Source: a plasmid. Taken from it: 64,000 nucleotides of DNA. The position numbers were made by a program, and so were the translations under genes. Numbering within the stretch: position 1 is the stretch's first letter; each line of letters opens with the position of its first letter. Positions 13,905 to 64,000 of the stretch are shown in pieces. Below the pieces are notes generated by a model that was not told where the DNA came from, ran no database searches, and saw nothing but the letters and a program-made list of their open reading frames with translations. The stretch lies in NCBI RefSeq assembly GCF_053078305.1, contig NZ_CP166875.1; one strand, 5' to 3'.

Positions 13905-14100
13905 AGTCACATGTTCTGCGACACCGGGCGGTGCCGTGCCTCCATCTTTGCCGGGCCTGCAGGGATGCAAGGGCGCAAGGAAAGCCGCAGCCCGACGCGC
14001 ACGGCTGACGGGAGTTGGAGGGTGAGACCGCGAAATCTGAGCGGGTGAACGACCGGAAAATCACGGCAGACGGGAAGGAGGGACCGGGTGACCGCAGCGG
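13905..14100 (-). repeat. Repeat family B copy 1 (upstream leader element of ardA)
   Basis: About 190 bp near-identical to 35140-35335, which sits upstream of the KlcA-like gene. Confidence 0.6.
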
Positions 14101-14302
14101 TTCATCTTACCTTGCAACCCGCCCGCAGAAGCCCGGCTACGATGGAGGCACGGCACAGCCCGCACACGACGCTGAGGCCACATAACTGAAAACCCACAAG
14201 GCCATGCCCCGCATGGCCGGGTAAAGCGGAGCCTGCGGCGACATCCTTTTGCTCTTTCCGGGGACCGGCTGGAAAAGGCGGAGATTTTCCCCGCCAGCGT
14301 CA

Positions 14303-22183: not shown

Positions 22184-22635
22184 TAATACCCCGACAAGAT
22201 TAAATTCTGGTTAACGATATCATTATACAGCGAATAATATAATTATGGTTCACGTATTATTATCCGTGACTCTTTCCTGGTAACTCCCGCATAATAACTT
22301 CACTTTTCCAGTATTCCAGAAGATGATGTTTTTTCCTCGATAATAAAAATGTGCCAATATGGAAATAAGAAATCGGATTTTTTATCAGCATACGCAAATT
22401 TTCAGATAACAATGAATACAGATGTATTTTATATACACAGATAAAACCGCGCAACAGACATAAATATGACAGTAGCATGAAAAAGCAGAGAGAGACAGGG
22501 TGATACAGAAAAGTAACTATTTTTTTAGCTATAGTATTATTGGTTTTACCTATTTTCGTGATTGTGTTTCTGTATATTGGGGGTTCGCGCCCATTTCCTC
22601 TAAAAGTCTCACCTTGCTTAGGTAATTAATTGAAT

Positions 22636-23217
22636 TTATTTATAAAACGTTGCAATTTTAGCATCATTTTTTATTGTTCTTTTTAACCTGAAGTACGTCG
22701 ATCGAGAGATACCTGTTTTTTCTGTCACACTGCCCAGAGATTCTCCCTGTGATATAAGCTCCAACGCTGTAGGCGTTCGTGGATGCTTCTTCCTGCCAAA
22801 TTTTACGCCTGCGGCAAGTGCCGCTATTCTTCCGTCGTTTGTCCGCTCCAGAATACGCTCACGTTCCGCTTCAGCTACAGCAGCAAGGATTTGGATAACC
22901 ATTTTGCCCATTGTCCCTTCTGTACTGAGACCGTTCTCCAGGAACCGGATGGCGATCCCCTTTTTGTAACAGCTATCAACCACACGAATCATGTCAGCAG
23001 TGTTACGCCCCAGTCGGTCCATTTTTGTACAGATGATTACGTCGTCTTTCTCTGCACGGGCCAACAACCGCTGTAGTCCTTCCCGTTCATCAGTTGCGCC
23101 AGTCATCATATCCGTAAAAATACGATCTTCCCGTACCCCGGCATTTTTTAGCTCCGAGATTTGATGTGTTAGCTTCTGATGACTGGTTGATACCCGTGCA
23201 TACCCCAATAACGCCAT
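22636..23217 (-). CDS. tnpR: Serine recombinase / resolvase
   Basis: N-terminal catalytic serine motif (GYARVSTSHQ), C-terminal HTH; divergent from the transposase gene. Confidence 0.85.
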   Translation of the reverse strand: MALLGYARVSTSHQKLTHQISELKNAGVREDRIFTDMMTGATDEREGLQRLLARAEKDDVIICTKMDRLGRNTADMIRVVDSCYKKGIAIRFLENGLSTEGTMGKMVIQILAAVAEAERERILERTNDGRIAALAAGVKFGRKKHPRTPTALELISQGESLGSVTEKTGISRSTYFRLKRTIKNDAKIATFYK

Positions 23218-23373
23218 TTTTAGTCTCACTTATCGTTTTTGACACTGCATGGTATCATAATGTACAAAATACGATTTTTGAAACCTGCTTTTATGCTGTT
23301 TTAGACAGGTATCAGATATCTTAATATTTGATACTAGCCATATTTAACAAATATTTAGCATTTTGGTAAATGT

Positions 23374-26300
23374 ATGCAGAAGTACAAGAAAAGAATTAGT
23401 ATATTAACAAAAAGTGAAATAAATGAATTATATCAAGTCCCCTCTTTTAATCCTGTTGAAAGGGATGAGTTTTTTTCGCTGGATATCAGCCTTAAAAGAG
23501 AAATTGATAAAATAATAAATATAGAAAGCAGGGTGTATCTGATATTAATAACAGGGTATTTCAGATATAAACCTGTGATTCCTGAATTTACATTAAAAGA
23601 CGTAAAAAGGGATGTGAAATATATTATCCAGACATATTATAAAAACGAAAGTACTAATCTCAATTTAAACATACCTAAAAGTACAAAGTACCGCCTTGTT
23701 AAACGAATGCTTTCTACTCTAGGATTTGAACAACTCACCCCATCTATAAAAAATGAGTTAAGTGAACGTCTGAATGATGTTGCTACTATATGTATGGAAC
23801 CAAAATATATTTTTGATGAATTACTTGCTTTTTTAGGACAGCGGCGTATAGCTCTTCCTGGATACAGTACTGTCCAGAACCTCGTTTCAGATGCTTTAAA
23901 CTTTGAAAGGAAAAGGACAATTAATATTTTGTCAAAGAGAATTTATCCTGCCACTGCACAAAAGATTACATCCATCATCCATGATGATGGAATATTAAAT
24001 TCCATCAGGGGATATAATTATAGCACGAGAGACTTCTCAGCATCAGAAATAGAAAATGAATTAAGAACTCACAATGTGATAAGTAGTATTTACTATGAAA
24101 TAAAAGATATAATTAATTCATTAGGTATATCCCAGGGAAACATGGAGTACTATGCAACTATCGTAAAACACAGTACAACATTCAGACTTAAGCGACACCC
24201 TAAATGGCAAGGAATACTTTATTTGTGCTGCTACTTGTACTTCAGATACAGAGAGATAAATGATAAAATAATCACAGCCTTCAGATATTTAGTAAAAAAA
24301 CATAAAGACGCTTCAGTTTTGTTTGCAAAAGCTCGGGCAACAGAGGAAATAGATCTAATAAATAAAAAGCTTAAGTTTGCGAGTAAAATATTTAACTTCT
24401 TCGTTGATAGTAACATTGAAGACAGCATCCCTTTTGGATATGTTCGTGAAAAGGTTTTTTCACTTATATCGAAAGATGATATGCATCTTGTGAGTGAATT
24501 TTTTGACAAAAATAAAATCGATGTAATTGAATATCAATGGCAGTATATTGACAGCCATCACCTTAAGATCGCCAATTCAATCCGAAAGCTTTTTCTGGCT
24601 ATAGATATAGTATATGACAACGAGAAGTCTGTTATTGGCCAGCAAATTACTGCTGCCAAGGATGATCTCAGAGGAAAAGGAAAGCTGGATGCTAAGGATC
24701 TGAGGGTAATTCATCCATCCGAGAAAAATTACATTGTAAAAGAAGGAGAAATTAACACTCAACGATTCGAATTTCATATGTACAGCAGGGTATCTAACCA
24801 TCTGGAAAACGGTGTCTTTTATGCTGCGGAGAGTGAACAAAACAAGAGACTGGAAGATGATCTCATAGAACGAAGTTACTGGCATAAGAATAAATCGATT
24901 TTGATAGAGAAAACAGGCCTTGAACGACTTATCACACCAATAACGCAGACTCTTAATGAGCTGGAGAATACCTTTAGCGATAAACTGGCTCGTATAACCA
25001 TTGGAATAAACTCAGATGCTAATGAGTTTGTGAAAAAACAACCACACTCCAACAGATTACAGTGGAGTCTGGCCAGTAAAAAATGGAAGACCAGCATCGA
25101 TAATCCGATTTACAATCAGATAAAAAATATCGGAATAGTTGACGTAATGAAGTATGTAAACAATGAGACGAATTTTTTGTCTGTGTTTAATGCCATATCA
25201 TCCAGGAAAAATAATCTTGAAGCTGACTATAATGACCTTCTTGCCTGTATATTTGGTAATGGCGCAAATTATGGTGTTCACAGAATGGCATCTGCATCAG
25301 ACCGTAGTATTGGAATACTACGTGATGTGAATGACAAATTCATTCGTCCAGAAACAACAGGAATGGCCAACACAGTAATATCTGATGCAATTGCAAATCT
25401 TTCTGTATATAAATACTGGACGATAAATGAAGATTCTCCATTTGGAAGTGTTGATGGGCAGAAGCACACTTGCAGAATAAATACATTTAAAGCCCGTTAT
25501 TCTGCCAAGTATTTCAGAAAGGGGAAAGGGGTTTCTGCGATGACACTGGTATCTAATCATGTGCCATTATCAACTGTGGTAATTTCTCCAAATGAATATG
25601 AAGGTCATTTTGCATTTGACTTGTTATATAACAACACCAGTGAAATACAACCAAAGTCATTAGCGACTGACAATCATGGTATAAACAACGTTAATTTTGC
25701 GATTCTTGACATTTTTGGCTATCAGTTTTCACCACGTTATGCAAAATTCAAGAAAATATTTAATGAATTATTTGATGTTATACTGGAGAGTGATAAACTC
25801 ATTATAAAACTTAAAAAACAATTTAACTTTAAGCTCATTGAACATGAATGGGAAAACATCCAACATATTATTTGTTCTTTAAGCAGAAAAACAACCATTC
25901 AAAGTACGGTTGTTAAGAAGTTATCTAATACAAAGCGTAGCAACAAGACATTAGCAGCACTTCGGGAGTATGACCGAGTTATAAAATGCATATATGTCCT
26001 GGATTATGCTGACAATAAAACCTTAAGGCAATTTGTGCAACAAGCACTGAACAGAGGTGAAGCTTATCATCAACTAAGAAGAGCAATAGCATCAGTAAAT
26101 GGAAATCAATTTCGCGGTGGTAATGACTACCAAATAGATCAATGGAACGACTGTGCGAGGTTAATAGCTAATTGTGTAATCTATTATAATTCAGCAATAT
26201 TATCCAGGCTGGTCGAGAAATTTGAAAAAGAAAATAATAAAAAAGCGATAGATGTTCTGGCTAACTTATCCCCAGTAGCATGGAGACACATTCTCCTTGG

Positions 26301-26412
26301 AGGGAATTATTCTTTTGAAGATCAAGTTGCGATCACAAATTTGGACAGTCTTTTGGAGGGAGTAGACCCACTAAGTGATATCGGAGATATTGAGTCCGAA
26401 TATGACGGTTAA
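23374..26412 (+). CDS. tnpA: Tn3-family DDE transposase
   Basis: 1012 aa, size and organisation typical of Tn3-family TnpA; AT-rich codon usage unlike the backbone. Confidence 0.8.
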   Translation: MQKYKKRISILTKSEINELYQVPSFNPVERDEFFSLDISLKREIDKIINIESRVYLILITGYFRYKPVIPEFTLKDVKRDVKYIIQTYYKNESTNLNLNIPKSTKYRLVKRMLSTLGFEQLTPSIKNELSERLNDVATICMEPKYIFDELLAFLGQRRIALPGYSTVQNLVSDALNFERKRTINILSKRIYPATAQKITSIIHDDGILNSIRGYNYSTRDFSASEIENELRTHNVISSIYYEIKDIINSLGISQGNMEYYATIVKHSTTFRLKRHPKWQGILYLCCYLYFRYREINDKIITAFRYLVKKHKDASVLFAKARATEEIDLINKKLKFASKIFNFFVDSNIEDSIPFGYVREKVFSLISKDDMHLVSEFFDKNKIDVIEYQWQYIDSHHLKIANSIRKLFLAIDIVYDNEKSVIGQQITAAKDDLRGKGKLDAKDLRVIHPSEKNYIVKEGEINTQRFEFHMYSRVSNHLENGVFYAAESEQNKRLEDDLIERSYWHKNKSILIEKTGLERLITPITQTLNELENTFSDKLARITIGINSDANEFVKKQPHSNRLQWSLASKKWKTSIDNPIYNQIKNIGIVDVMKYVNNETNFLSVFNAISSRKNNLEADYNDLLACIFGNGANYGVHRMASASDRSIGILRDVNDKFIRPETTGMANTVISDAIANLSVYKYWTINEDSPFGSVDGQKHTCRINTFKARYSAKYFRKGKGVSAMTLVSNHVPLSTVVISPNEYEGHFAFDLLYNNTSEIQPKSLATDNHGINNVNFAILDIFGYQFSPRYAKFKKIFNELFDVILESDKLIIKLKKQFNFKLIEHEWENIQHIICSLSRKTTIQSTVVKKLSNTKRSNKTLAALREYDRVIKCIYVLDYADNKTLRQFVQQALNRGEAYHQLRRAIASVNGNQFRGGNDYQIDQWNDCARLIANCVIYYNSAILSRLVEKFEKENNKKAIDVLANLSPVAWRHILLGGNYSFEDQVAITNLDSLLEGVDPLSDIGDIESEYDG

Positions 26413-26478
26413 CAACATGATAAATAATGGTTTTTATGCTAAGAGTGAGACTTTTGGAGGAAATGGGCGCAGAACCCC

Positions 26479-35120: not shown

Positions 35121-35139
35121 GGGATTTCCTCCGTTGTTC

Positions 35140-35335
35140 ACATATTCCGCGACACCGGGCGGTGCCGTGCCTCCAGAAAAGCCGGGCGATAAGGCGGGGA
35201 TGCAAGGGCGCAAGGGAAGCCGCAGCCTGACGCACACGGCTGGCGGGAGTTGGAGGGTGAGACCGCGAAATCTGAGCGGGTGAACGACCGGAAAATCACG
35301 GCAGACGGGAAGGAGGGACCGGGTGACCGCCGCGT
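35140..35335 (-). repeat. Repeat family B copy 2 (upstream leader element of the KlcA-like gene)
   Basis: Near-identical to 13905-14100. Confidence 0.6.
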
Positions 35336-36694: not shown

Positions 36695-36973
36695 CGCCTT
36701 CGCGTTGCTCAGTTGTCCAACCCCGGGGACGGGAAAAAGCAAGTTTTCCCCGCCCCCGGCGTTTCTGTAGTGAAAAGCGGGAAATGGAGGGAATGGTCAG
36801 TAACAGGGAATGTGGTATTATCGCGGCGGGTGTCTGAGCCTTTCTGGTTCAGGCAAGACGCAGGTACTAGAAATGCGAAGACCCCACTTGTTAATCCATT
36901 AACTCGTGAGGCCTGCATGAAGTACTTGAACACTACTGATTGTAGCCTCTTCCTTGCAGAGAGGTCAAAGTTT

Positions 36974-37123
36974 ATGACGAAATATGCCCTTATCGGGTTG
37001 CTCGCCGTGTGCGCCACGGTGTTGTGTTTTTCACTGATATTCAGGGAACGGTTATGTGAGCTGAATATTCACAGGGGAAATACAGTGGTGCAGGTAACTC
37101 TGGCCTACGAAGCACGGAAGTAA
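36974..37123 (+). CDS. srnB: Hok/Gef-family type I toxin (SrnB/PndA-like)
   Basis: 49 aa MTKYALIGLLAVCATVLCFSLIFRERLCELNIHRGNTVVQVTLAYEARK; leader ORF starts at about 36917. Confidence 0.75.
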   Translation: MTKYALIGLLAVCATVLCFSLIFRERLCELNIHRGNTVVQVTLAYEARK

Positions 37124-37754: not shown

Positions 37755-37850
37755 GTTCTGATGTGGATGTACAGGAGCCAGAAAAGTGAAAACCCCGATA
37801 ATCTTCTTTAACTTTGGCGAGTGAGAAAGATTACCGGGGCCATCTAAAAA
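37755..37850 (-). ncRNA. copA: CopA-type antisense RNA (replication control), inferred
   Basis: Imperfect long stem-loop (ccccgataatctt...aagattaccgggg) in the repA leader between copB and tap; position as in IncFII replicons. Confidence 0.4.
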
Positions 37851-37890
37851 CCGTATAGCCAACAATTCAGCTATGCGGGGAGTATAGTTA

Positions 37891-37965
37891 TATGCCCGGA
37901 AAAGTTCAAGACTTCTTTCTGTGCTCGCTCCTTCTGCGCATTGTAAGTGCAGGATGGTGTGACTG
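37891..37965 (+). CDS. tap: RepA leader peptide Tap (RepA6)
   Basis: 24-codon [27 protein letters not shown] whose stop overlaps the repA start. Confidence 0.7.
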
Positions 37966-38816
37966 ATCTTCAACAAACGTATTACCGCCAGGTAAAGAAC
38001 CCGAATCCGGTGTTTACACCCCGTAAAGGTGCCGGAACGCTGAAGTTCTGCGAAAAACTGATGGAAAAGGCGGTGGGCTTCACCTCCCGTTTTGATTTCG
38101 CCATTCATGTGGCGCATGCCCGTTCGCGTGGTCTGCGTCGACGCATGCCACCGGTGCTGCGTCGACGGGCTATTGATGCGCTGCTGCAGGGGCTGTGTTT
38201 CCATTATGACCCGCTGGCCAACCGCGTCCAGTGTTCCATTACCACACTGGCCATTGAGTGCGGACTGGCGACAGAGTCCGGTGCAGGAAAACTCTCCATC
38301 ACCCGGGCCACCCGGGCCCTGACGTTCCTGTCAGAGCTGGGACTGATTACCTACCAGACGGAATATGATCCGCTTATCGGGTGCTACATTCCGACCGATA
38401 TCACGTTCACACCGGCGCTGTTTGCCGCCCTTGATGTGTCTGAGGATGCAGTGGCAGCTGCGCGCCGCAGCCGTGTGGTATGGGAAAACAGACAGCGCAA
38501 AAAGCAGGGGCTGGATACCCTGGGTATGGATGAGCTGATAGCGAAAGCCTGGCGTTTTGTCCGTGAGCGTTTCCGCAGTTACCAGACAGAGCTTAAGTCC
38601 CACGGCATGAAACGTGCCCGTGCGCGCCGCGATGCAGGCAGAACCCGCCAGGACATTGTCACCCTGGTGAAACGGCAGCTGACGCGTGAAATCGCGGAAG
38701 GGCGTTTCCGGGGAAGCCTGGAGGCCGTGAAGCGCGAAATCGACCGTCGTGTGAAGGAACGCATGATAATGTCGCGTAACAACAACTACACACGGCTGGC
38801 CACTGCCTCCCCCTGA
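37959..38816 (+). CDS. repA: IncFII replication initiator RepA1
   Basis: 285 aa from the start overlapping the tap stop; recognised RepA1 sequence. Confidence 0.9.
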
Positions 38817-39384: not shown

Positions 39385-39665
39385 TGTCAGTATTCTGGCT
39401 GGAAGTCCTCAGTACACGCTCGTAAGCGGCCCTCACGGCCCGCTAACGCGGAGATACGCCCCGACTTCGGGTAAACCCTCGTCGGGACCACTCCGACCGC
39501 GCACATAAGCTCTATCATAGCTGACAGCGGGTATGGCTTTGCAGGGTGGGGATGGGTAAGGTGAAATCTATCAATCAGTACCGGCTTACGCCGGGCTTCG
39601 GCGGTTTTACTCCGGTATCACATGTAACCACAGCGTGCCGCCTTACATGCGCTGACGCGCATAAA
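39385..39665 (+). repeat. Repeat family D copy 1 (about 280 bp, upstream of a toxin-antitoxin cassette)
   Basis: Near-identical to 41273-41548 and partially to 49862-49950; contains GC hairpins including a terminator-like cgccgggcttcggcggtttta. Confidence 0.6.
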
Positions 39666-40531: not shown

Positions 40532-40810
40532 ATGAAAAACAATACCGCACAGGCAACAAAAGTAATTACCGCGCATGTGCCATTACCTATGGCTGATAAA
40601 GTCGACCAGATGGCCGCCAGACTGGAACGCTCCCGGGGCTGGGTTATCAAACAGGCACTTTCTGCATGGCTTGCCCAGGAGGAGGAGCGTAATCGCCTGA
40701 CGCTGGAAGCCCTGGACGATGTGATATCCGGACAGATTATCGACCATCAGGCTGTACAGGCCTGGGCAGACAGCCTCAGTACTGACAATCCGTTACCGGT
40801 TCCACGCTGA
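40532..40810 (+). CDS. Ribbon-helix-helix antitoxin (ParD/CopG-like)
   Basis: 92 aa; stop overlaps start of the downstream toxin. Confidence 0.55.
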   Translation: MKNNTAQATKVITAHVPLPMADKVDQMAARLERSRGWVIKQALSAWLAQEEERNRLTLEALDDVISGQIIDHQAVQAWADSLSTDNPLPVPR

Positions 40811-41085
40811 TGGAACTGAAGTGGACCAGTAAGGCGCTTTCTGATTTGGCGCGGTTATATGATTTTCTGGTGCTGGCCAGTAAACCTGCCGCCGCCAGAA
40901 TGGTACAGTCCCTGATACAGGCACCGGTCATTCTGTTAACTCATCCACGTATGGGAGAACAGTTGTTTCAGTTTGAACCCAGGGAGGTCAGACGGATTTT
41001 TGCTGGCGAGTACGAAATCCGTTACGAACTTAATGGGCTGCGTTTGGGAAACGTACAATATTGTACGGTTGCGCTATTGCGGTAG
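40810..41085 (+). CDS. ParE/RelE-family toxin
   Basis: 91 aa, coupled to the upstream RHH antitoxin. Confidence 0.55.
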   Translation: MELKWTSKALSDLARLYDFLVLASKPAAARMVQSLIQAPVILLTHPRMGEQLFQFEPREVRRIFAGEYEIRYELNGLRLGNVQYCTVALLR

Positions 41086-41272
41086 GGTGTACTCCAACGC
41101 TATACGGTATTTGGCAGACCTTTAGGGACATGAGATAACCTAAATGCAATAAGAGAAAAGCAATAACTTAAAGGCGATAGCTGATCACGATGAATCAATC
41201 AGTTACTTATCCGCATCGATTAAAAAATGCTCCTAACGTACAATAATTCCGTTTCCCAAACCGACCCCTCAG

Positions 41273-41548
41273 TGTTCTGGCTGGAAGTCCTCAGTACACG
41301 CTCGTAAGCGGCCCTGACGGCCCGCTAACGCGGAGATACGCCCCGACTTCGGGTAAACCCTCGTCGGGACCACTCCGACCGCGCACAGAAGCTCTCTCAT
41401 GGCTGAAAGCGGGTATGGCTTAACAGGGTGGGAATGGGATAGGCGAAATCTATCAATCAGTACCGGCTTACGCCGGGCTTCGGCGGTTTTACTCCGGTAT
41501 CACATGTAACCACAGCGTACCGCCTTCCATGCCGCTGGCGCGGCATAT
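41273..41548 (+). repeat. Repeat family D copy 2
   Basis: Near-identical to D1. Confidence 0.6.
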
Positions 41549-41600
41549 CATGGTGACGATATCTGAATCGTTATATACTGTGTATATACGTGGTAATGAC

Positions 41601-41700
41601 GAGGTGATAAATGGCACAGGTTAATATGAGTTTAAGAATCGACGCTGAACTGAAGGATGCTTTTATGGGGTCAGCCTGGAATTCGGAAAATAAACCACGT
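41601..41700 (+). pseudogene. RelB/DinJ-like antitoxin N-terminal fragment, truncated by a miniature element
   Basis: MAQVNMSLRIDAELKDAF then runs straight into the GGGG terminus of the Tn3-type inverted repeat. Confidence 0.5.
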
Positions 41701-41856
41701 TAAGACTATTTTTTAGCCAAATGACTGTCAGGAATCCGGACGGTCGGAACATTTCGTACAGCCTTTACGTTCAGTGAGTTAGCTGGCCTGGATGTAACCA
41801 CTCGTTCAACTCAATTCTCTTAGCGTGGGAAAATTTCCGTTTTCCAAGCGGACCCC
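41667..41856 (+). mobile_element. Tn3-derived miniature element (TIME-like, 190 bp)
   Basis: Left IR GGGGTCAGCCTGGAATTCGGAAAATAAACCACGTTAAG (41667-41704) and right IR, reverse complement GGGGTCCGCTTGGAAAACGGAAATTTTCCCACGCTAAG (41819-41856); no coding capacity. Confidence 0.65.
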
Positions 41857-41875
41857 TAGAAGAAGGGAAGCGATA

Positions 41876-42292
41876 TCAAGCCCAGGGATTAATAATTGAT
41901 ACTCCGGTTAATTCAAAATCACCAACATTTCTGGTTACAACCGTCATCCCATGTACCAGCGCCGTTGCTGCGATCAATGCGTCTCGTTCACTGCGCCTGT
42001 CGGGAACATGTAAACGAGAACAACGTAATGCAACCGCAGTATCTACAGGAAGTATCTTATCAGAAAACGCTGGTAACACATGCTGATCCATCCAAGAACG
42101 TAGCATAATCCCTTGTCGCATATCTCGACGTTCAACTTGTAATATTCCCTGTTCAAGTTCCATTATGGAAATAACAGAAATAAAGAAATCTGCCGCATCT
42201 GTATGCAATACCCATTTTGCAACATTATTATCTATACGTCCTGTCCGAGCCTTCCGTAGCTCAGAGATAACATTAGTATCAAGAATATACAC
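41876..42292 (-). CDS. vapC: PIN-domain toxin VapC
   Basis: 138 aa starting MYILDTNVISELRK; PIN acidic residues. Confidence 0.8.
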   Translation of the reverse strand: MYILDTNVISELRKARTGRIDNNVAKWVLHTDAADFFISVISIMELEQGILQVERRDMRQGIMLRSWMDQHVLPAFSDKILPVDTAVALRCSRLHVPDRRSERDALIAATALVHGMTVVTRNVGDFELTGVSIINPWA

Positions 42293-42546
42293 TATAAAAA
42301 CTCCGCAGGTTTTAAACTAACCGTAATACGAGGCGGTTCAAATTCAACTGCATCAGCATCGGGCATCGCCAGAATGTCAATGAGAGTTCGTCGTTGTTGC
42401 GTCAATTTTCGGTATTCTTCGATACTAAGAAGTACATGTGCGGTTTTACCCCGATCAGTAATAAATACTGGACCATAATTCGTGGCGCGTTTGGCTCGAG
42501 TTACATCTTGATTAAGTTCCCGACTGGATAGGGTTGTAATCTTCAT
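42292..42546 (-). CDS. vapB: Antitoxin VapB (Phd/YefM-type)
   Basis: Start refined to MKITTLSSREL; overlaps vapC start. Confidence 0.7.
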   Translation of the reverse strand: MKITTLSSRELNQDVTRAKRATNYGPVFITDRGKTAHVLLSIEEYRKLTQQRRTLIDILAMPDADAVEFEPPRITVSLKPAEFL

Positions 42547-42657
42547 GCTGTTGCCTTTTGATGTATATAGGTACGTTACTACATTGTAGGGCATGAAATA
42601 GTACAATGCAAGAAATGTACTTGATTAGGGGTAGTCTTCGCCGCTTGTTGCTGTCAG

Positions 42658-42729: not shown

Positions 42730-43068
42730 ATGCGGTTTTTTTTAGGCGGCAGGTGTTACACGGCTGAAAACCTTGAAAAGGATTATCTGGCTGAAGTTGC
42801 TAATTACAGTGACGACCGCTGGGAAGCACCCCAACGCGCCGCACGTCTGGCAGCTGCCGTAAAGCGTTACAAGACATCAGAAATGCTGCGCTTTATTTTT
42901 GCTACCACTGCCTACGATCCCGATCCAGATTTAACCCCGCTGACTGTGAGACGTTTGTGCAAGGCATTGTTCGGCAGAACAGGAAGCCAGTGGCTGGTTG
43001 TTGAAGTTTTTGGGGAGAAGGGGCGTCAGCACCGCAGCGCGGACAGCAATCCGGAGATGGTGGAAAAA
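42730..43068 (+). pseudogene. Hypothetical gene (about 160 aa when rejoined), 5' part, interrupted by Tn3-family copy 2
   Basis: ATG with RBS agggagg; frame continues across the transposon into 46969-47214. Confidence 0.5.
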
Positions 43069-43125
43069 GGGGGTTCGCGCCCATTTCCTCTAAAAGTCTC
43101 ACCTTGCTTAGGTAATTAATTGAAT

Positions 43126-43707
43126 TTATTTATAAAACGTTGCAATTTTAGCATCATTTTTTATTGTTCTTTTTAACCTGAAGTACGTCGATCGAGAGAT
43201 ACCTGTTTTTTCTGTCACACTGCCCAGAGATTCTCCCTGTGATATAAGCTCCAACGCTGTAGGCGTTCGTGGATGCTTCTTCCTGCCAAATTTTACGCCT
43301 GCGGCAAGTGCCGCTATTCTTCCGTCGTTTGTCCGCTCCAGAATACGCTCACGTTCCGCTTCAGCTACAGCAGCAAGGATTTGGATAACCATTTTGCCCA
43401 TTGTCCCTTCTGTACTGAGACCGTTCTCCAGGAACCGGATGGCGATCCCCTTTTTGTAACAGCTATCAACCACACGAATCATGTCAGCAGTGTTACGCCC
43501 CAGTCGGTCCATTTTTGTACAGATGATTACGTCGTCTTTCTCTGCACGGGCCAACAACCGCTGTAGTCCTTCCCGTTCATCAGTTGCGCCAGTCATCATA
43601 TCCGTAAAAATACGATCTTCCCGTACCCCGGCATTTTTTAGCTCCGAGATTTGATGTGTTAGCTTCTGATGACTGGTTGATACCCGTGCATACCCCAATA
43701 ACGCCAT
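43126..43707 (-). CDS. tnpR: Serine recombinase / resolvase (copy 2)
   Basis: Identical to 22636-23217. Confidence 0.85.
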   Translation of the reverse strand: MALLGYARVSTSHQKLTHQISELKNAGVREDRIFTDMMTGATDEREGLQRLLARAEKDDVIICTKMDRLGRNTADMIRVVDSCYKKGIAIRFLENGLSTEGTMGKMVIQILAAVAEAERERILERTNDGRIAALAAGVKFGRKKHPRTPTALELISQGESLGSVTEKTGISRSTYFRLKRTIKNDAKIATFYK

Positions 43708-43863
43708 TTTTAGTCTCACTTATCGTTTTTGACACTGCATGGTATCATAATGTACAAAATACGATTTTTGAAACCTGCTTTTATGCTGTTTTAGACAGGT
43801 ATCAGATATCTTAATATTTGATACTAGCCATATTTAACAAATATTTAGCATTTTGGTAAATGT

Positions 43864-46800
43864 ATGCAGAAGTACAAGAAAAGAATTAGTATATTAACAA
43901 AAAGTGAAATAAATGAATTATATCAAGTCCCCTCTTTTAATCCTGTTGAAAGGGATGAGTTTTTTTCGCTGGATATCAGCCTTAAAAGAGAAATTGATAA
44001 AATAATAAATATAGAAAGCAGGGTGTATCTGATATTAATAACAGGGTATTTCAGATATAAACCTGTGATTCCTGAATTTACATTAAAAGACGTAAAAAGG
44101 GATGTGAAATATATTATCCAGACATATTATAAAAACGAAAGTACTAATCTCAATTTAAACATACCTAAAAGTACAAAGTACCGCCTTGTTAAACGAATGC
44201 TTTCTACTCTAGGATTTGAACAACTCACCCCATCTATAAAAAATGAGTTAAGTGAACGTCTGAATGATGTTGCTACTATATGTATGGAACCAAAATATAT
44301 TTTTGATGAATTACTTGCTTTTTTAGGACAGCGGCGTATAGCTCTTCCTGGATACAGTACTGTCCAGAACCTCGTTTCAGATGCTTTAAACTTTGAAAGG
44401 AAAAGGACAATTAATATTTTGTCAAAGAGAATTTATCCTGCCACTGCACAAAAGATTACATCCATCATCCATGATGATGGAATATTAAATTCCATCAGGG
44501 GATATAATTATAGCACGAGAGACTTCTCAGCATCAGAAATAGAAAATGAATTAAGAACTCACAATGTGATAAGTAGTATTTACTATGAAATAAAAGATAT
44601 AATTAATTCATTAGGTATATCCCAGGGAAACATGGAGTACTATGCAACTATCGTAAAACACAGTACAACATTCAGACTTAAGCGACACCCTAAATGGCAA
44701 GGAATACTTTATTTGTGCTGCTACTTGTACTTCAGATACAGAGAGATAAATGATAAAATAATCACAGCCTTCAGATATTTAGTAAAAAAACATAAAGACG
44801 CTTCAGTTTTGTTTGCAAAAGCTCGGGCAACAGAGGAAATAGATCTAATAAATAAAAAGCTTAAGTTTGCGAGTAAAATATTTAACTTCTTCGTTGATAG
44901 TAACATTGAAGACAGCATCCCTTTTGGATATGTTCGTGAAAAGGTTTTTTCACTTATATCGAAAGATGATATGCATCTTGTGAGTGAATTTTTTGACAAA
45001 AATAAAATCGATGTAATTGAATATCAATGGCAGTATATTGACAGCCATCACCTTAAGATCGCCAATTCAATCCGAAAGCTTTTTCTGGCTATAGATATAG
45101 TATATGACAACGAGAAGTCTGTTATTGGCCAGCAAATTACTGCTGCCAAGGATGATCTCAGAGGAAAAGGAAAGCTGGATGCTAAGGATCTGAGGGTAAT
45201 TCATCCATCCGAGAAAAATTACATTGTAAAAGAAGGAGAAATTAACACTCAACGATTCGAATTTCATATGTACAGCAGGGTATCTAACCATCTGGAAAAC
45301 GGTGTCTTTTATGCTGCGGAGAGTGAACAAAACAAGAGACTGGAAGATGATCTCATAGAACGAAGTTACTGGCATAAGAATAAATCGATTTTGATAGAGA
45401 AAACAGGCCTTGAACGACTTATCACACCAATAACGCAGACTCTTAATGAGCTGGAGAATACCTTTAGCGATAAACTGGCTCGTATAACCATTGGAATAAA
45501 CTCAGATGCTAATGAGTTTGTGAAAAAACAACCACACTCCAACAGATTACAGTGGAGTCTGGCCAGTAAAAAATGGAAGACCAGCATCGATAATCCGATT
45601 TACAATCAGATAAAAAATATCGGAATAGTTGACGTAATGAAGTATGTAAACAATGAGACGAATTTTTTGTCTGTGTTTAATGCCATATCATCCAGGAAAA
45701 ATAATCTTGAAGCTGACTATAATGACCTTCTTGCCTGTATATTTGGTAATGGCGCAAATTATGGTGTTCACAGAATGGCATCTGCATCAGACCGTAGTAT
45801 TGGAATACTACGTGATGTGAATGACAAATTCATTCGTCCAGAAACAACAGGAATGGCCAACACAGTAATATCTGATGCAATTGCAAATCTTTCTGTATAT
45901 AAATACTGGACGATAAATGAAGATTCTCCATTTGGAAGTGTTGATGGGCAGAAGCACACTTGCAGAATAAATACATTTAAAGCCCGTTATTCTGCCAAGT
46001 ATTTCAGAAAGGGGAAAGGGGTTTCTGCGATGACACTGGTATCTAATCATGTGCCATTATCAACTGTGGTAATTTCTCCAAATGAATATGAAGGTCATTT
46101 TGCATTTGACTTGTTATATAACAACACCAGTGAAATACAACCAAAGTCATTAGCGACTGACAATCATGGTATAAACAACGTTAATTTTGCGATTCTTGAC
46201 ATTTTTGGCTATCAGTTTTCACCACGTTATGCAAAATTCAAGAAAATATTTAATGAATTATTTGATGTTATACTGGAGAGTGATAAACTCATTATAAAAC
46301 TTAAAAAACAATTTAACTTTAAGCTCATTGAACATGAATGGGAAAACATCCAACATATTATTTGTTCTTTAAGCAGAAAAACAACCATTCAAAGTACGGT
46401 TGTTAAGAAGTTATCTAATACAAAGCGTAGCAACAAGACATTAGCAGCACTTCGGGAGTATGACCGAGTTATAAAATGCATATATGTCCTGGATTATGCT
46501 GACAATAAAACCTTAAGGCAATTTGTGCAACAAGCACTGAACAGAGGTGAAGCTTATCATCAACTAAGAAGAGCAATAGCATCAGTAAATGGAAATCAAT
46601 TTCGCGGTGGTAATGACTACCAAATAGATCAATGGAACGACTGTGCGAGGTTAATAGCTAATTGTGTAATCTATTATAATTCAGCAATATTATCCAGGCT
46701 GGTCGAGAAATTTGAAAAAGAAAATAATAAAAAAGCGATAGATGTTCTGGCTAACTTATCCCCAGTAGCATGGAGACACATTCTCCTTGGAGGGAATTAT

Positions 46801-46902
46801 TCTTTTGAAGATCAAGTTGCGATCACAAATTTGGACAGTCTTTTGGAGGGAGTAGACCCACTAAGTGATATCGGAGATATTGAGTCCGAATATGACGGTT
46901 AA
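43864..46902 (+). CDS. tnpA: Tn3-family DDE transposase (copy 2)
   Basis: Identical to 23374-26412. Confidence 0.8.
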   Translation: MQKYKKRISILTKSEINELYQVPSFNPVERDEFFSLDISLKREIDKIINIESRVYLILITGYFRYKPVIPEFTLKDVKRDVKYIIQTYYKNESTNLNLNIPKSTKYRLVKRMLSTLGFEQLTPSIKNELSERLNDVATICMEPKYIFDELLAFLGQRRIALPGYSTVQNLVSDALNFERKRTINILSKRIYPATAQKITSIIHDDGILNSIRGYNYSTRDFSASEIENELRTHNVISSIYYEIKDIINSLGISQGNMEYYATIVKHSTTFRLKRHPKWQGILYLCCYLYFRYREINDKIITAFRYLVKKHKDASVLFAKARATEEIDLINKKLKFASKIFNFFVDSNIEDSIPFGYVREKVFSLISKDDMHLVSEFFDKNKIDVIEYQWQYIDSHHLKIANSIRKLFLAIDIVYDNEKSVIGQQITAAKDDLRGKGKLDAKDLRVIHPSEKNYIVKEGEINTQRFEFHMYSRVSNHLENGVFYAAESEQNKRLEDDLIERSYWHKNKSILIEKTGLERLITPITQTLNELENTFSDKLARITIGINSDANEFVKKQPHSNRLQWSLASKKWKTSIDNPIYNQIKNIGIVDVMKYVNNETNFLSVFNAISSRKNNLEADYNDLLACIFGNGANYGVHRMASASDRSIGILRDVNDKFIRPETTGMANTVISDAIANLSVYKYWTINEDSPFGSVDGQKHTCRINTFKARYSAKYFRKGKGVSAMTLVSNHVPLSTVVISPNEYEGHFAFDLLYNNTSEIQPKSLATDNHGINNVNFAILDIFGYQFSPRYAKFKKIFNELFDVILESDKLIIKLKKQFNFKLIEHEWENIQHIICSLSRKTTIQSTVVKKLSNTKRSNKTLAALREYDRVIKCIYVLDYADNKTLRQFVQQALNRGEAYHQLRRAIASVNGNQFRGGNDYQIDQWNDCARLIANCVIYYNSAILSRLVEKFEKENNKKAIDVLANLSPVAWRHILLGGNYSFEDQVAITNLDSLLEGVDPLSDIGDIESEYDG

Positions 46903-46968
46903 CAACATGATAAATAATGGTTTTTATGCTAAGAGTGAGACTTTTGGAGGAAATGGGCGCAGAACCCC

Positions 46969-47214
46969 ACTGTGAGACGTTTGTGCAAGGCATTGTTCGG
47001 CAGAACCGGAAGCCAGTGGCTGGTTGTTGAAGTTTTTGGGGAGAAGGGGCGTCAGCACCGCAGCGCGGACAGCAATCCGGAGATGGTGGAAAAAATGGCT
47101 GCCAGATATCGTCATGCCGCCGAACTACACTGGTCCGCAACGCTGGCAGAAATTGAACGGGTAAAGCGGCTTTATCAGACGAAAATTAAGAAATCCAAAA
47201 AAGAAGTGGGTTGA
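46969..47214 (+). pseudogene. 3' part of the interrupted hypothetical gene
   Basis: Repeats residues LTVRRLCKALF...EMVEK of the 5' part, then continues to a stop. Confidence 0.5.
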
Positions 47215-47299: not shown

Positions 47300-47420
47300 G
47301 GGGTCCGCTTGGAATTCGGAAATTTTCCCACGCTAAGTGAATTGAGTTGAACGAGTGGTTACATCCAGGCCAGCTAACTCACTGAACGTAAAGACTGTAC
47401 GAAATGTTCCGACCGTCCGA
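47300..47420 (+). repeat. Solo Tn3-type terminus: inverted copy of the right 120 bp of the miniature element
   Basis: Begins GGGGTCCGCTTGGAATTCGGAAATTTTCCCACGCTAAG; reverse complement of 41739-41856; no partner IR found to its right. Confidence 0.6.
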
Positions 47421-47577
47421 TAACCATTTGGCTTACTTCCGTACATTTCCTTGCGTAGATGTACAGAATTGTACGTTTTCGTACGGTTGGCCCTCAAACC
47501 CCATCCTTGAGTAGTGGCATAAGAAAACGGCTCCCTGTTGTGGAAGCCGTTATCAGTTGCACGATTAGCATTGGAGT

Positions 47578-60779: not shown

Positions 60780-61412
60780 TTGTCGCACATGTTGATTGGT
60801 TATATGCGGGTATCAAGCAATGATGAACGTCAGTCAGTTTCTTTGCAGCGTGATGCGTTGATTGCTGCCGGAGTGGATCCCCGGCATTTACATCAGGATC
60901 ATGCTTCAGGTGCTCGTGATAATCGCCCGGGACTTAAGTCCTGTCTCGCTGAACTTCGCGAAGGTGATGTACTGATAGTCTGGAAACTGGATCGACTTGG
61001 TCGTTCACTCTCACATTTGCTCCGAATTATTGAAGACCTGAAAATTCGTGGTATTGCTTTCCGATCATTGACTGAATCTATTGATACAACAACGCCACAC
61101 GGCTCGTTCCTCTTTAACCTTTTTGGCACGCTCGCGGAGTACGAAAGAGCACTTATCACAGAACGCGTTAATGCTGGTCTGGCTGCTGCTCTCCGGCGGG
61201 GGCGAAAAGGCGGAAGGCCACCGGCGATAGATGCTGAAAAGGTTGATCAAATCCTCGCAGCTCTGGAAGGAGGTGCCAGTAAAGCGTCAGTATGTCGCGC
61301 ATTCAGTGTGCCACGCTCAACACTCACCGATACTCTACGACGAATTGGCTGGGCCGGACCTGGGGGCCGTAATCTGACAACGGATCAGAGCAATGTCATT
61401 TCTCGACGCTAA
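60780..61412 (+). CDS. tnpR: Serine recombinase / resolvase
   Basis: Catalytic serine motif (GYMRVSSNDERQ); C-terminal HTH. Confidence 0.85.
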   Translation: MSHMLIGYMRVSSNDERQSVSLQRDALIAAGVDPRHLHQDHASGARDNRPGLKSCLAELREGDVLIVWKLDRLGRSLSHLLRIIEDLKIRGIAFRSLTESIDTTTPHGSFLFNLFGTLAEYERALITERVNAGLAAALRRGRKGGRPPAIDAEKVDQILAALEGGASKASVCRAFSVPRSTLTDTLRRIGWAGPGGRNLTTDQSNVISRR

Positions 61413-64000
61413 ATCGTACGATACGCTTTTTGGATTACCTGAACTTTATGAGGATGCACTTCCCCGGTTTTCGCTCTCCTGCGAGGATATTGCATTCGCC
61501 AGAACTCATCGTCGATCTCATAACCGTCTGGGTTTTGCCATTCAGCTTGCACTTGTCCGTGATCTCGGTCGTACACTGCGTGCAGGAGAGATTCCCCCGG
61601 AGGCTGTTATCACCGTTGTTGCGGAACAACTGGATATTGACCCTGCTGTTTTTACACTTTACGCGCAACGTGAGGAAACCCGTCGGGAACATGCCCGCGA
61701 AATAGTTTCGGCTTTGGCGCTTCGTTCCATCCGGAGTAGCGATTACAGAATGCTCATTATCGCGGCTACACGCGAAGCAGCAACCACCGAAAAAGGACTG
61801 CCGATCACCAGAGCAGTTATCAATAAGCTGAAGGACCAGAAGTTACTTGCTCCTGCTCCGGCGCAACTAATCCGTCTGGCAATGGCGGGCCGGGCGGCTG
61901 CCCGTCGCCTTTCTTATCGGGAACTCATCAGGGATCTGAAACCTTCATCCATTAGCGCTCTCGAGCAGTTGCTTACCGAACGAGTCGGAGAAAAGAGCAT
62001 TTTAGGCTGGATAGCTGAAGCGCCGGAAGGCGTGAAGCTCAAGAATCTTAAGGGGTTAATTGCCAGGCTGGAGGTATTACGAGCAGCGGCAATCTCCGAT
62101 GAGCAACGTAAACGGATTCATGTAAACCGTTACGGTATTATTGCCCGGGATTCTCGCGTTTTACATGCGCGTGAAATACAACGAATGGCATCCGAACGCC
62201 GTCATGCCACGCTGGTAGCCTTTGTTATTGAAAAGCAGGCAACAATTACAGATCTGGCAATTGATATGTTCTGCAAATTGATTGGCAGCACGAGGCGCAG
62301 AGCAGAGATAAGCCAGAAAGAGCGTCGTCTGAAAGCCGCTGAAGTACTTGAAGTCGTAGCTCAGGATCATATTAAGCTGGGACGGGCTCTCCTGGCAGCA
62401 CGTGATGGTAATACTGATATTGAATCTGTAATAACAGCATCACTCGGCTGGGAAGGTTTGATTGCCAGTATGGAGGCTGCAGCTTCGGTGGCATCTTCCC
62501 ATCACTGTTCTGAACTGGATGAACTTATTGGACGACAAAAATCATTACGTAAGCTTGGACGACTCATTTTCAGTGCTTTTTCTTTCAGAGCTTTTCGCCC
62601 GGATGATAGCGTTTTGTTGGCGATTGGGTATTTGCAGGCGTTCTATCATGGCCGAAAATTACCCAAACAAATTCCGCTCGATTTTATGTCCCATAAATGG
62701 CGACGTCGTGTCATCCATGGAGAAAATACCGATCTGCAGGCGTGGGAAGTCGCCGTATTCGTTCATTTGCGAGAACGCCTGAAAACAGGTGACATATGGG
62801 TTGATGGTAGTCGGGCCTGGCGTAGTTTTGAGGACTACCTTCTTCCTCACCATGTTTTCGGGCAGATGCGGGCAGAATCCCGGCTGGGACTTGCCATTCC
62901 GGACAACTTTGCTGAATGGCGGGCTGAGCGAACCACCACACTCAACGCAAAACTGAAAGCGCTGGCAAAAGCTGCTTCGGAGAATGCCATACCCGATGCA
63001 GAACTTTCCAGCAGAGGGTTGTCTGTGTCTCCGATTCGCGAAGAAGAGAACGACAAAATTAAGGCTCTCAGCCGTAAACTATACATGCTGGTACCACGCA
63101 TCAGAATTACCAGTTTGCTGGCAGAAGTTCATAGCTGGACCAGTTTTCTTGATTGTTTCACACATTATCGCACCGGGGAACAGGCGGAAGATGAAGCTGC
63201 ACTTATGGCTGCGATCCTTGCCGATGCGACGAATGCGGGAGCAGAACGGATGGCGCAGAGTTCCCGGGGGGTCACCATTCACCAGATGATGGTAATGATG
63301 GATCGTCATTTACGCACTGAAACCTATGCGTCTGCCACATCAGTTCTGGTCGATGCGCAACAGGAACATCCTTTTGCTGCTATATGGGGTGATGGGCATG
63401 TGTCATCCTCGGACAGGCAGTTTTTTCCTGCGGGTGGACGAGGAGAAGCCAGCCTCGAATATAACGCCAAATACGGCAAACGACCTGGCGCGTCGATTTA
63501 TGGTTTTTTATCGAACCGTTTTGCATCCTTTTTTTCCAGAATGATTCAGGCCTCTGAAAGCGAGGCTCCCTACGTACTTGACGGCTTACTTCATAACGAA
63601 AGTTCTGTGGAGATTCATGAGCATGCCACCGATACAGCCGGTGCGACTGAAACAACATTTTCAATGTTTCACTCTTTTGGTTACAGACTCATACCCCGTA
63701 TTCGCAACCTCGGCAGTCGCAGGTTGTACGTTATTTCACCTTCTGAGGAATATAAACCACTTGATGCCCTGATCGCCGGAAAGGCCAAAATGGAAGTAAT
63801 AGAACAGCACTGGGATGAAGTTTTGCGGCTTAAGGCCTCGATCGGCGCTGGTCTGGTACCACCATCGGTAATACTGAAAAAGCTGGCAGCATCTCCGAGA
63901 CAAAACAGGCTCAATCTGGCCCTGCGTGAAATGGGACGTATTGAACGCTCAATTTTTATCTGTGACTGGTTGCTTGACACTCGGTTACGTCGCAGATCAC
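61393..64000 (+). CDS. tnpA: Tn3-family transposase, 3'-partial (runs off the window)
   Basis: Hand translation from ATG at about 61393 gives an uninterrupted frame to the window end with a TnpA-like N-terminus (NRLGFAIQLALVR); absent from the ORF track because it has no stop. Confidence 0.75.
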   Translation, partial: MSFLDAKSYDTLFGLPELYEDALPRFSLSCEDIAFARTHRRSHNRLGFAIQLALVRDLGRTLRAGEIPPEAVITVVAEQLDIDPAVFTLYAQREETRREHAREIVSALALRSIRSSDYRMLIIAATREAATTEKGLPITRAVINKLKDQKLLAPAPAQLIRLAMAGRAAARRLSYRELIRDLKPSSISALEQLLTERVGEKSILGWIAEAPEGVKLKNLKGLIARLEVLRAAAISDEQRKRIHVNRYGIIARDSRVLHAREIQRMASERRHATLVAFVIEKQATITDLAIDMFCKLIGSTRRRAEISQKERRLKAAEVLEVVAQDHIKLGRALLAARDGNTDIESVITASLGWEGLIASMEAAASVASSHHCSELDELIGRQKSLRKLGRLIFSAFSFRAFRPDDSVLLAIGYLQAFYHGRKLPKQIPLDFMSHKWRRRVIHGENTDLQAWEVAVFVHLRERLKTGDIWVDGSRAWRSFEDYLLPHHVFGQMRAESRLGLAIPDNFAEWRAERTTTLNAKLKALAKAASENAIPDAELSSRGLSVSPIREEENDKIKALSRKLYMLVPRIRITSLLAEVHSWTSFLDCFTHYRTGEQAEDEAALMAAILADATNAGAERMAQSSRGVTIHQMMVMMDRHLRTETYASATSVLVDAQQEHPFAAIWGDGHVSSSDRQFFPAGGRGEASLEYNAKYGKRPGASIYGFLSNRFASFFSRMIQASESEAPYVLDGLLHNESSVEIHEHATDTAGATETTFSMFHSFGYRLIPRIRNLGSRRLYVISPSEEYKPLDALIAGKAKMEVIEQHWDEVLRLKASIGAGLVPPSVILKKLAASPRQNRLNLALREMGRIERSIFICDWLLDTRLRRRS

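Follow-up and report, generated by a model that had tools for sequence, protein, structure and literature searches.

The joint between a truncated antitoxin gene and a gene-less stretch of 190 bp raises the question of what this stretch is and how it came to abut the gene. The stretch lies on a plasmid, in a 64-kb piece of DNA that was analyzed as a whole (hereafter, the window). The initial annotation had described it as a non-coding Tn3-derived miniature element with 38-bp inverted repeats, inserted into a RelB/DinJ-like antitoxin gene. Its coordinates proved to be exact, and we resolved the following parts.

41667–41856, plus strand: unit A, a 190-bp Tn3-derived miniature element (TIME) equal to family positions 1–70 and 167–286 of a 286-bp unit
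41667–41704, plus strand: left inverted repeat (IRL) of unit A, 38 bp, from direct arm comparison
41819–41856, minus strand: right inverted repeat (IRR) of unit A, 38 bp, from direct arm comparison
41736–41737, no strand: joint of the 96-bp internal deletion of unit A, where family positions 71–166 are missing

The left arm of unit A is GGGGTCAGCCTGGAATTCGGAAAATAAACCACGTTAAG, and the reverse complement of its right arm is GGGGTCCGCTTGGAAAACGGAAATTTTCCCACGCTAAG. Direct ungapped comparison aligned the two arms as inverted repeats, as had been claimed, with 29/38 identity. A seed-based repeat search with default seeds had returned nothing for them, because no 9-base exact seed is common to both arms, and it was replaced by the direct comparison and a window-wide count. 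Across the whole 64-kb window, inverted 38-mer pairs of at least 29/38 identity within 400 bp were found, besides unit A, only at 13916–14171. The Tn3-type end pattern GGGG...ACGNTAAG had five matches in the window, as compared with 0.74 expected, and three of these were termini of unit A and its relative at 47300. A GC-rich inverted repeat (30–31/38, arms about 230 bp apart) was located at 13916–14171 and 35127–35334, the second copy of the region being 90% identical.

Two of the features that define TIMEs were present in unit A: ends of about 38 bp of the Tn3-family type, with a GGGG tip and a ACGNTAAG inner end, and a small size (about 50–500 bp) without a transposase or credible gene. The longest stop-free stretch was 34 codons in unit A and 64 codons in the full 286-bp unit, an Rfam scan of unit A gave no match, and promoter and terminator scans detected nothing in it, all in agreement with the initial description. 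The single-strand fold of unit A was strong (z = −4.1), which is simply its two arms pairing. Comparison of the flanks (TTTAT on the left and TAGAA on the right) showed no 5-bp target-site duplication, the third defining feature considered; this absence had been recorded before and ascribed to later rearrangement, and it does reflect rearrangement. Unit A is a genuine miniature transposon of the Tn3 family, decayed and devoid of genes.

Alignment to the family unit showed that the 190 bp of unit A are the 286-bp unit minus its internal positions 71–166. The initial annotation had named membership of a longer intact transposon as an outcome that would overturn its reading; a longer form does exist, of which the 190 bp are a deleted derivative, but it is itself gene-less and not an intact transposon. 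The 286-bp unit was present, whole or in part, in 2,248 PLSDB plasmids, of which 607 held at least 80% of it, with hosts mainly in Escherichia, Klebsiella, Shigella, and Salmonella. At least part of it was found in 1,380 of 5,426 complete E. coli genomes (~25%), where 1,803 of the 1,838 sites (98%) were on plasmids, and it was never annotated in the complete E. coli genomes surveyed. Copies often numbered more than one per record. The commonest fragment comprised positions 81–286, as in pC15-1a, and a Lelliottia plasmid carried a full-length copy that was 75% identical to the 286-bp unit.

Full-length 286-bp units occupied distinct insertion sites in the records L001, L004, L096, and L098–L102, with katP, cvi/cvaC, yacB, pemK, a higBA-like pair, and colicin Ia genes as neighbors, and one unit lay inside the end of a parE-family gene. 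Ungapped arm-to-arm identity was usually 29–33/38 in the family and lower in two of eight copies. The copy in L001 had a perfect TTATA/TTATA duplication, and none was found in the seven other full-length contexts; because only 1 of about 8 independent sites was clean in this respect, direct sequence evidence of simple transposition is thin for the 286-bp family. Most of the contexts inspected (L096, L097, L098, L099, L100, L004, and positions 41667–42606 of the window) adjoined a toxin-antitoxin module, namely yacAB, pemIK, a higBA-like pair, RHH-parE, or vapBC, an observation that does not imply an excess over chance for plasmid maintenance regions.

Occurrence at several unrelated sites, by which TIMEs are also recognized, was found for the 286-bp family and not for its 190-bp variant. 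A search for the 190-bp unit in other plasmids with target duplications, proposed with the initial annotation, returned no such case: the 190-bp form with both of its junctions was present in only 8 other PLSDB plasmids, all from E. coli, and no second context was found in PLSDB. This restriction to 8 other plasmids and one context indicated that the 190-bp form has been inherited rather than transposed.

We then compared the unit with named TIMEs. The TIME family was defined by Szuplewska et al. (2014; PMC4133298), and both the concept and the mobilization in trans of such elements have been described (PMC4133298; PMC13367494). Reference sequences of IS101, IMU, TIME244, and MITESen1 were taken from Table S2 of Gomi and Yano (2026; PMC13367494), where a named TIME is assigned at ≥95% identity over ≥95% of the reference. 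The unit is distinct from all four: its best local scores were only 20–48, and its identity lay below that threshold. It resembles TIMEs in being short, non-coding, plasmid-borne, and mosaic, in its ~38-bp Tn3-family repeats of the form GGGG...ACGNTAAG, and in the frequent absence of duplications, which natural TIMEs also often lack (Fig. S4 legend, PMC13367494). Unit A differs from typical TIMEs in its internal deletion, its missing duplication, and its single genomic context.

The 286-bp unit falls in the size class of IMU (288 bp) and TIME244/MITEEc2 (244 bp), which are Tn21-subgroup-like TIMEs of Enterobacteriaceae, and the IRL of unit A matched the IRL of IMU at 30/38 and that of TIME244 at 29/38 positions. 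Local scores against these two elements were 40–48, about the level of the terminal repeats, and in these comparisons no similarity to a Tn21-type res site was seen. IS101 (209 bp, from pSC101, mobilized by Tn1000) is, like unit A, a non-autonomous Tn3-family element, but its score against unit A was 20, the shuffle level, and the termini matched at only 18–21/38. For MITESen1 (256 bp), the termini of unit A matched at 25–30/38, and the local score of 38 was about that of the terminal repeats. A search of the unit for a recognizable res-like site by similarity to IS101 and TIME244 found none, the IS101 comparison remaining at shuffle level and the TIME244 score of 40 corresponding to the terminal repeats. 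Published prevalences among Enterobacteriaceae genomes are 0.94% for TIME244 and 0.06% for IMU (PMC13367494); the 286-bp unit, at least part of which is held by 25% of complete E. coli genomes, is far more prevalent. No prior name for it was found in the searchable literature. The 286-bp unit is apparently an unnamed and very prevalent TIME family, representing a kind of element that is already known.

To the left of unit A, the following features were identified.

41269–41610, plus strand: DNA upstream of yacA that travels with it, comprising a second copy (94%) of the post-origin segment and the yacA promoter region
41611–41666, plus strand: 5' remnant of yacA (RelB/DinJ-type antitoxin), 18 codons + 2 nt, with homology to intact yacA ending at 41666–41668

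The first 19 residues of the open reading frame at 41611, MAQVNMSLRIDAELKDAFM, were identical to those of intact YacA in L005, L096, and L097. The DNA of the yacA region was 92% identical to L005 over 210 bp and 99.3% identical to many plasmids over 149 bp. Annotated yacA is thus matched both in its start and in the region upstream of it, with only the first 56 nt of the gene remaining. The rest of yacA and the whole of yacB were absent from the entire window. The initial annotation had correctly placed the left terminus after 18 codons of the antitoxin frame and had found the rest of the cassette missing. The comparison with intact yacAB cassettes that it proposed defined the junction after yacA nucleotide 56, with an ambiguity of 2 nt, GG being both the next bases of yacA and the first bases of the unit (GGGG).

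Five records, including L096 (E. albertii pEA13_1) and L097 (pO104_H7), contained intact yacA-yacB followed by the 286-bp unit. In all five, repA precedes yacA, and the unit, oriented as in the window, starts 53 bp downstream of yacAB. Alignment to L096 showed that exactly 545 bp are missing from the window; the missing stretch starts with nucleotide 57 of yacA and ends with the last base ahead of the GGGG of the unit. Given this arrangement of intact yacAB and unit, the junction in the window is most plausibly read as the product of a 545-bp deletion that stops at the unit terminus, and the yacA–unit A joint, as judged from these alignments, as a rearrangement joint at which most of the yacAB cassette was lost. 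Adjacent deletions by intramolecular replicative transposition, as in the Tn3 family and IS26, extend from a neighboring point to the exact terminus and leave no duplication, and the comparison of the joint with L096 and L097 appears to match this pattern. The 2-nt ambiguity makes a microhomology-mediated illegitimate deletion a possible alternative.

The same data bear on whether the element had simply transposed from elsewhere into yacA at TTTAT, with an unrelated later rearrangement replacing all DNA on its right side and, with it, the other copy of the duplication. Tn3-family targets are usually AT-rich. The junction does lie at the element terminus, the TTTAT flank is AT-rich, and an absent duplication is compatible with later loss. 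However, the complementary junction (the right end followed by TTTAT and the rest of yacA), searched for with a synthetic query, was present in no PLSDB record. Moreover, in relatives whose yacAB is intact, the unit is already resident 53 bp downstream and points the same way, so that a single deletion suffices, and the right flank would still need a further event. We consider a simple insertion of this kind unlikely. Of the earlier claim of an insertion into the antitoxin gene, what stands is that the unit abuts truncated yacA; insertion as such gives way to the 545-bp deletion that fits L096 and L097. The two readings overlap at one point, as an intramolecular attack on yacA by a resident copy is itself an insertion that deletes the DNA between.

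To the right of unit A, a toxin-antitoxin pair was found.

41876–42292, minus strand: intact vapC, encoding a PIN toxin of 138 aa, with its stop codon 19 bp from the right terminus of unit A
42292–42546, minus strand: Phd/YefM-type antitoxin gene paired with vapC; the annotation of the sibling plasmid L002 gives it 255 bp

Homology to vapBC plasmids free of the element (L003) began exactly at 41856/41857, and the unit A–vapC junction was found in PLSDB in none but the same 8 plasmids. Regarding the surrounding replicon, Rfam identified sok antisense RNA and CopA RNA at 36828–36984 and 37784–37874, which together with repA at 37947–38816 indicated an IncFII-type replicon. Of a 279-bp segment usually located behind the IncFII replication origin, the window has two copies (39387–39663 and 41269–41547; 94% identical).

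Two further miniature elements, units B and C, flank this region, and four termini of the three units proved to be exact homology breakpoints.

41034–41268, plus strand: unit C, a Tn3-type miniature element related to MITESen1 and interrupting a parE/relE-family toxin gene (40810–41085) at its 3' end
47300–47502, minus strand: unit B, an inverted mosaic relative composed of the right 178 bp of the 286-bp unit and an IS101-IRR-like terminus
41666/41667: left breakpoint of unit A, meeting yacA
41856/41857: right breakpoint of unit A, meeting the vapC flank as in L003
41268/41269: right breakpoint of unit C, meeting the post-origin segment
47299/47300: right breakpoint of unit B, meeting position 3235 of L005

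Unit B shares 121 bp with unit A at 97% identity and retains part of the stretch deleted in unit A. Its end terminus matched the IRR of IS101 at 32/38 positions. L097 contains a fusion of the 286-bp unit with a copy of IS101; the fusion point is an internal stretch resembling the IS101 IRR, the same internal point as in unit B. The mosaic structure of unit B and this fusion at the same point indicated that the 286-bp unit contains an internal degenerate end of the IS101/Tn1000 type. The DNA at the right terminus of unit B adjoins, in L005, another MITESen1-type remnant. A single replicative inversion generating both A and B was rejected: ATCCT beside B predicts AGGAT at the right end of A, where TAGAA was found.

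Unit C gave a local score of 122 against MITESen1 (shuffle maximum, 22) and was about 75% identical to it, identifying unit C as a relative of MITESen1 and not MITESen1 itself. The right terminus of unit C is the exact starting point of the second copy of the post-origin segment, an arrangement that looks like the capture of part of a second replicon-yacAB module. In the Enterobacter plasmid L100, a 286-type unit lies 13 bp further along the same parE/relE-family gene than unit C, and the two positions suggest a preferred target in this gene.

Replicative Tn3-family transposition is expected to yield terminus-exact breakpoints through cointegrates, adjacent deletions, and inversions. We infer that the four terminus-exact breakpoints follow this pattern rather than that of random deletion. 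The precision of the breakpoints also bears on a passive role for the unit, in which it would be portable homology and RecA-dependent crossovers between copies would have produced a hybrid with flanks from different parents. Such recombination has been proposed by Gomi and Yano for MITESen1 structures (PMC13367494), and the presence of the family in thousands of plasmids, often with more than one copy per record, the missing duplications of most copies, and the 97%-identical stretch common to A and B would all accommodate it. It could explain the right flank, but the left flank would need a pre-existing yacA::unit allele, which was not observed. By itself, it gives no reason for breakpoints at the outermost base of a terminus, and it only redistributes junctions already made by transposition. 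We therefore regard homologous recombination as a quite improbable origin of the arrangement.

The inverted units A and B bracket vapC, vapB, and a hypothetical gene, and TIME-bounded composite transposons (TIME-COMPs) with inverted TIMEs are documented (PMC13367494), but a composite A-vapBC-B transposon can practically be dismissed and was rejected on its unequal outer flanks (TTTAT vs ATCCT), its outer termini of different types (Tn21-like IRL vs IS101-like, about 20/38), and the sibling plasmid L002, which has unit A and vapBC and whose homology to the window ends before the position of unit B; no second site for A-vapBC-B was found either.

Taken together, we consider it likely that unit A is a decayed copy of a non-autonomous Tn3-family TIME whose family is mobilized in trans, and that its junction arose through terminus-precise deletion. 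A Tn3-family transposase supplied in trans would bind both ends of the unit and promote replicative ("paste-and-copy") transposition. Between molecules, this process would give rise to cointegrates; within one molecule, it would cause deletions or inversions that start exactly at an element terminus, with no duplication around a single copy. The ancestral order would have been that of present-day L096 and L097: repA, yacA, yacB, and the 286-bp unit. A terminus-precise deletion of 545 bp, most simply by intramolecular transposition into yacA, would have brought codon 19 of yacA against the left end of the unit, at the cost of the toxin gene yacB and most of the antitoxin gene yacA. At least one separate event would have brought the vapC flank to the right end, and a third event would have been the loss of the 96 internal bp. 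As no intermediate yacAB-unit-vapC arrangement was found, we infer the order and number of these events. Since then, the 190-bp form would only have been inherited, vertically or with its plasmid, and this copy is now probably inert.

To find a candidate source of the transposase, we used the outermost 20 nt of the right arm as a query against one genome per species and obtained 85 loci, nearly all from Enterobacterales. At several of these, including L024, L047, and L081, a Tn3-family transposase gene of ~1,000 aa ends just inside such a terminus. The termini in L024 (Pantoea sp. IMH), L047, and L081 matched the right arm of unit A at 37/38 and the left arm at 30/38 positions; in the plasmid L103, where the same transposase gene is accompanied by a divergent resolvase gene, the terminus was likewise 37/38 identical to the IRR. 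The IRR match is thus the transposase-proximal terminus of full-length Tn3-family transposons (L024 and L103), the interiors of which are unrelated to the unit. At ≥95% identity, this transposase occurred in 318 PLSDB plasmids of Klebsiella, Enterobacter, Citrobacter, and E. coli, and it was absent from the window. From this terminal similarity, the L024/L103-type transposase is a possible partner of the 286-bp family, with putative recognition of both ends. Against a full match to this candidate mobilizer, the arms of unit A agree with each other at only 29/38 positions and its IRL with the candidate terminus at only 30/38. Hit H130, also considered as a parent transposon, was only a terminal-repeat fragment with an IS3-family transposase gene ~150 bp downstream. 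In Photorhabdus cinerea, contigs L011–L022 carried the same type of 38-bp terminus; its location ~107–127 bp from many contig ends indicated a high-copy element with such a terminus in that genome.

The window contains Tn3-family transposons of its own, the nearest of which lies beyond vapBC.

43069–46968, plus strand: 3,900-bp Tn3-family transposon with a resolvase (43126–43719, minus strand), a transposase (43864–46902, plus strand), and termini of a different type

This transposon is AT-rich, encodes a 1012-aa transposase, and is present in two 100%-identical direct copies (22579–26478 and 43069–46968), with termini (GGGGGTTCGCGCCCATTTCC...) unlike those of the miniature units. A putative resolvase (60780–61412) and a third Tn3-family transposase, which starts at 61474 and runs off the window end, were located at 60780–63996. 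The resident transposons are unlikely mobilizers of unit A, as the termini of the 3.9-kb transposon are unrelated and the transposases of the 3,900-bp transposon and the third locus are only 23% and 33% identical, respectively, to the candidate partner transposase of L024. The second 3,900-bp copy is flanked not by a 5-bp duplication but by a 126-bp direct duplication of the interrupted hypothetical gene (42943–43068 and 46969–47094), which may go back to two insertions spaced 126 bp apart that recombined by a crossover inside the transposon.

In the ColV plasmids L004, L096, and L102, the unit adjoins cvi. The reverse primer of a published colicin V typing PCR, CCGTTTTCCAAGCGGACCCC (PMC12456677), has the same sequence as the outermost 20 nt of the unit's right arm (41837–41856), so that its binding site lies within a repeated mobile element.

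The 190-bp copy, taken alone, is a fossil; it is its family that matters for plasmid annotation and comparative genomics. We tentatively suggest that the 286-bp unit might be by far the most prevalent TIME family in E. coli and that, together with its MITESen1- and IS101-like relatives, it might be the principal "joint" for swapping, deleting, and fusing maintenance modules among F-like and I-like plasmids, these modules being toxin-antitoxin cassettes, colicin and microcin operons, and replicon-proximal segments. If this is true, terminus-precise joins made by a transposase would account for both the missing duplications of most copies and their position immediately next to toxin-antitoxin genes. 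Genes flanking a 286-bp unit could be mobilized by it if a matching transposase is present, as has been shown for TIMEs carrying resistance genes. The 286-bp family marks exact breakpoints between plasmid modules, and recognizing the unit accounts for the truncation of toxin-antitoxin genes and for "orphan" junctions in F-like plasmids.
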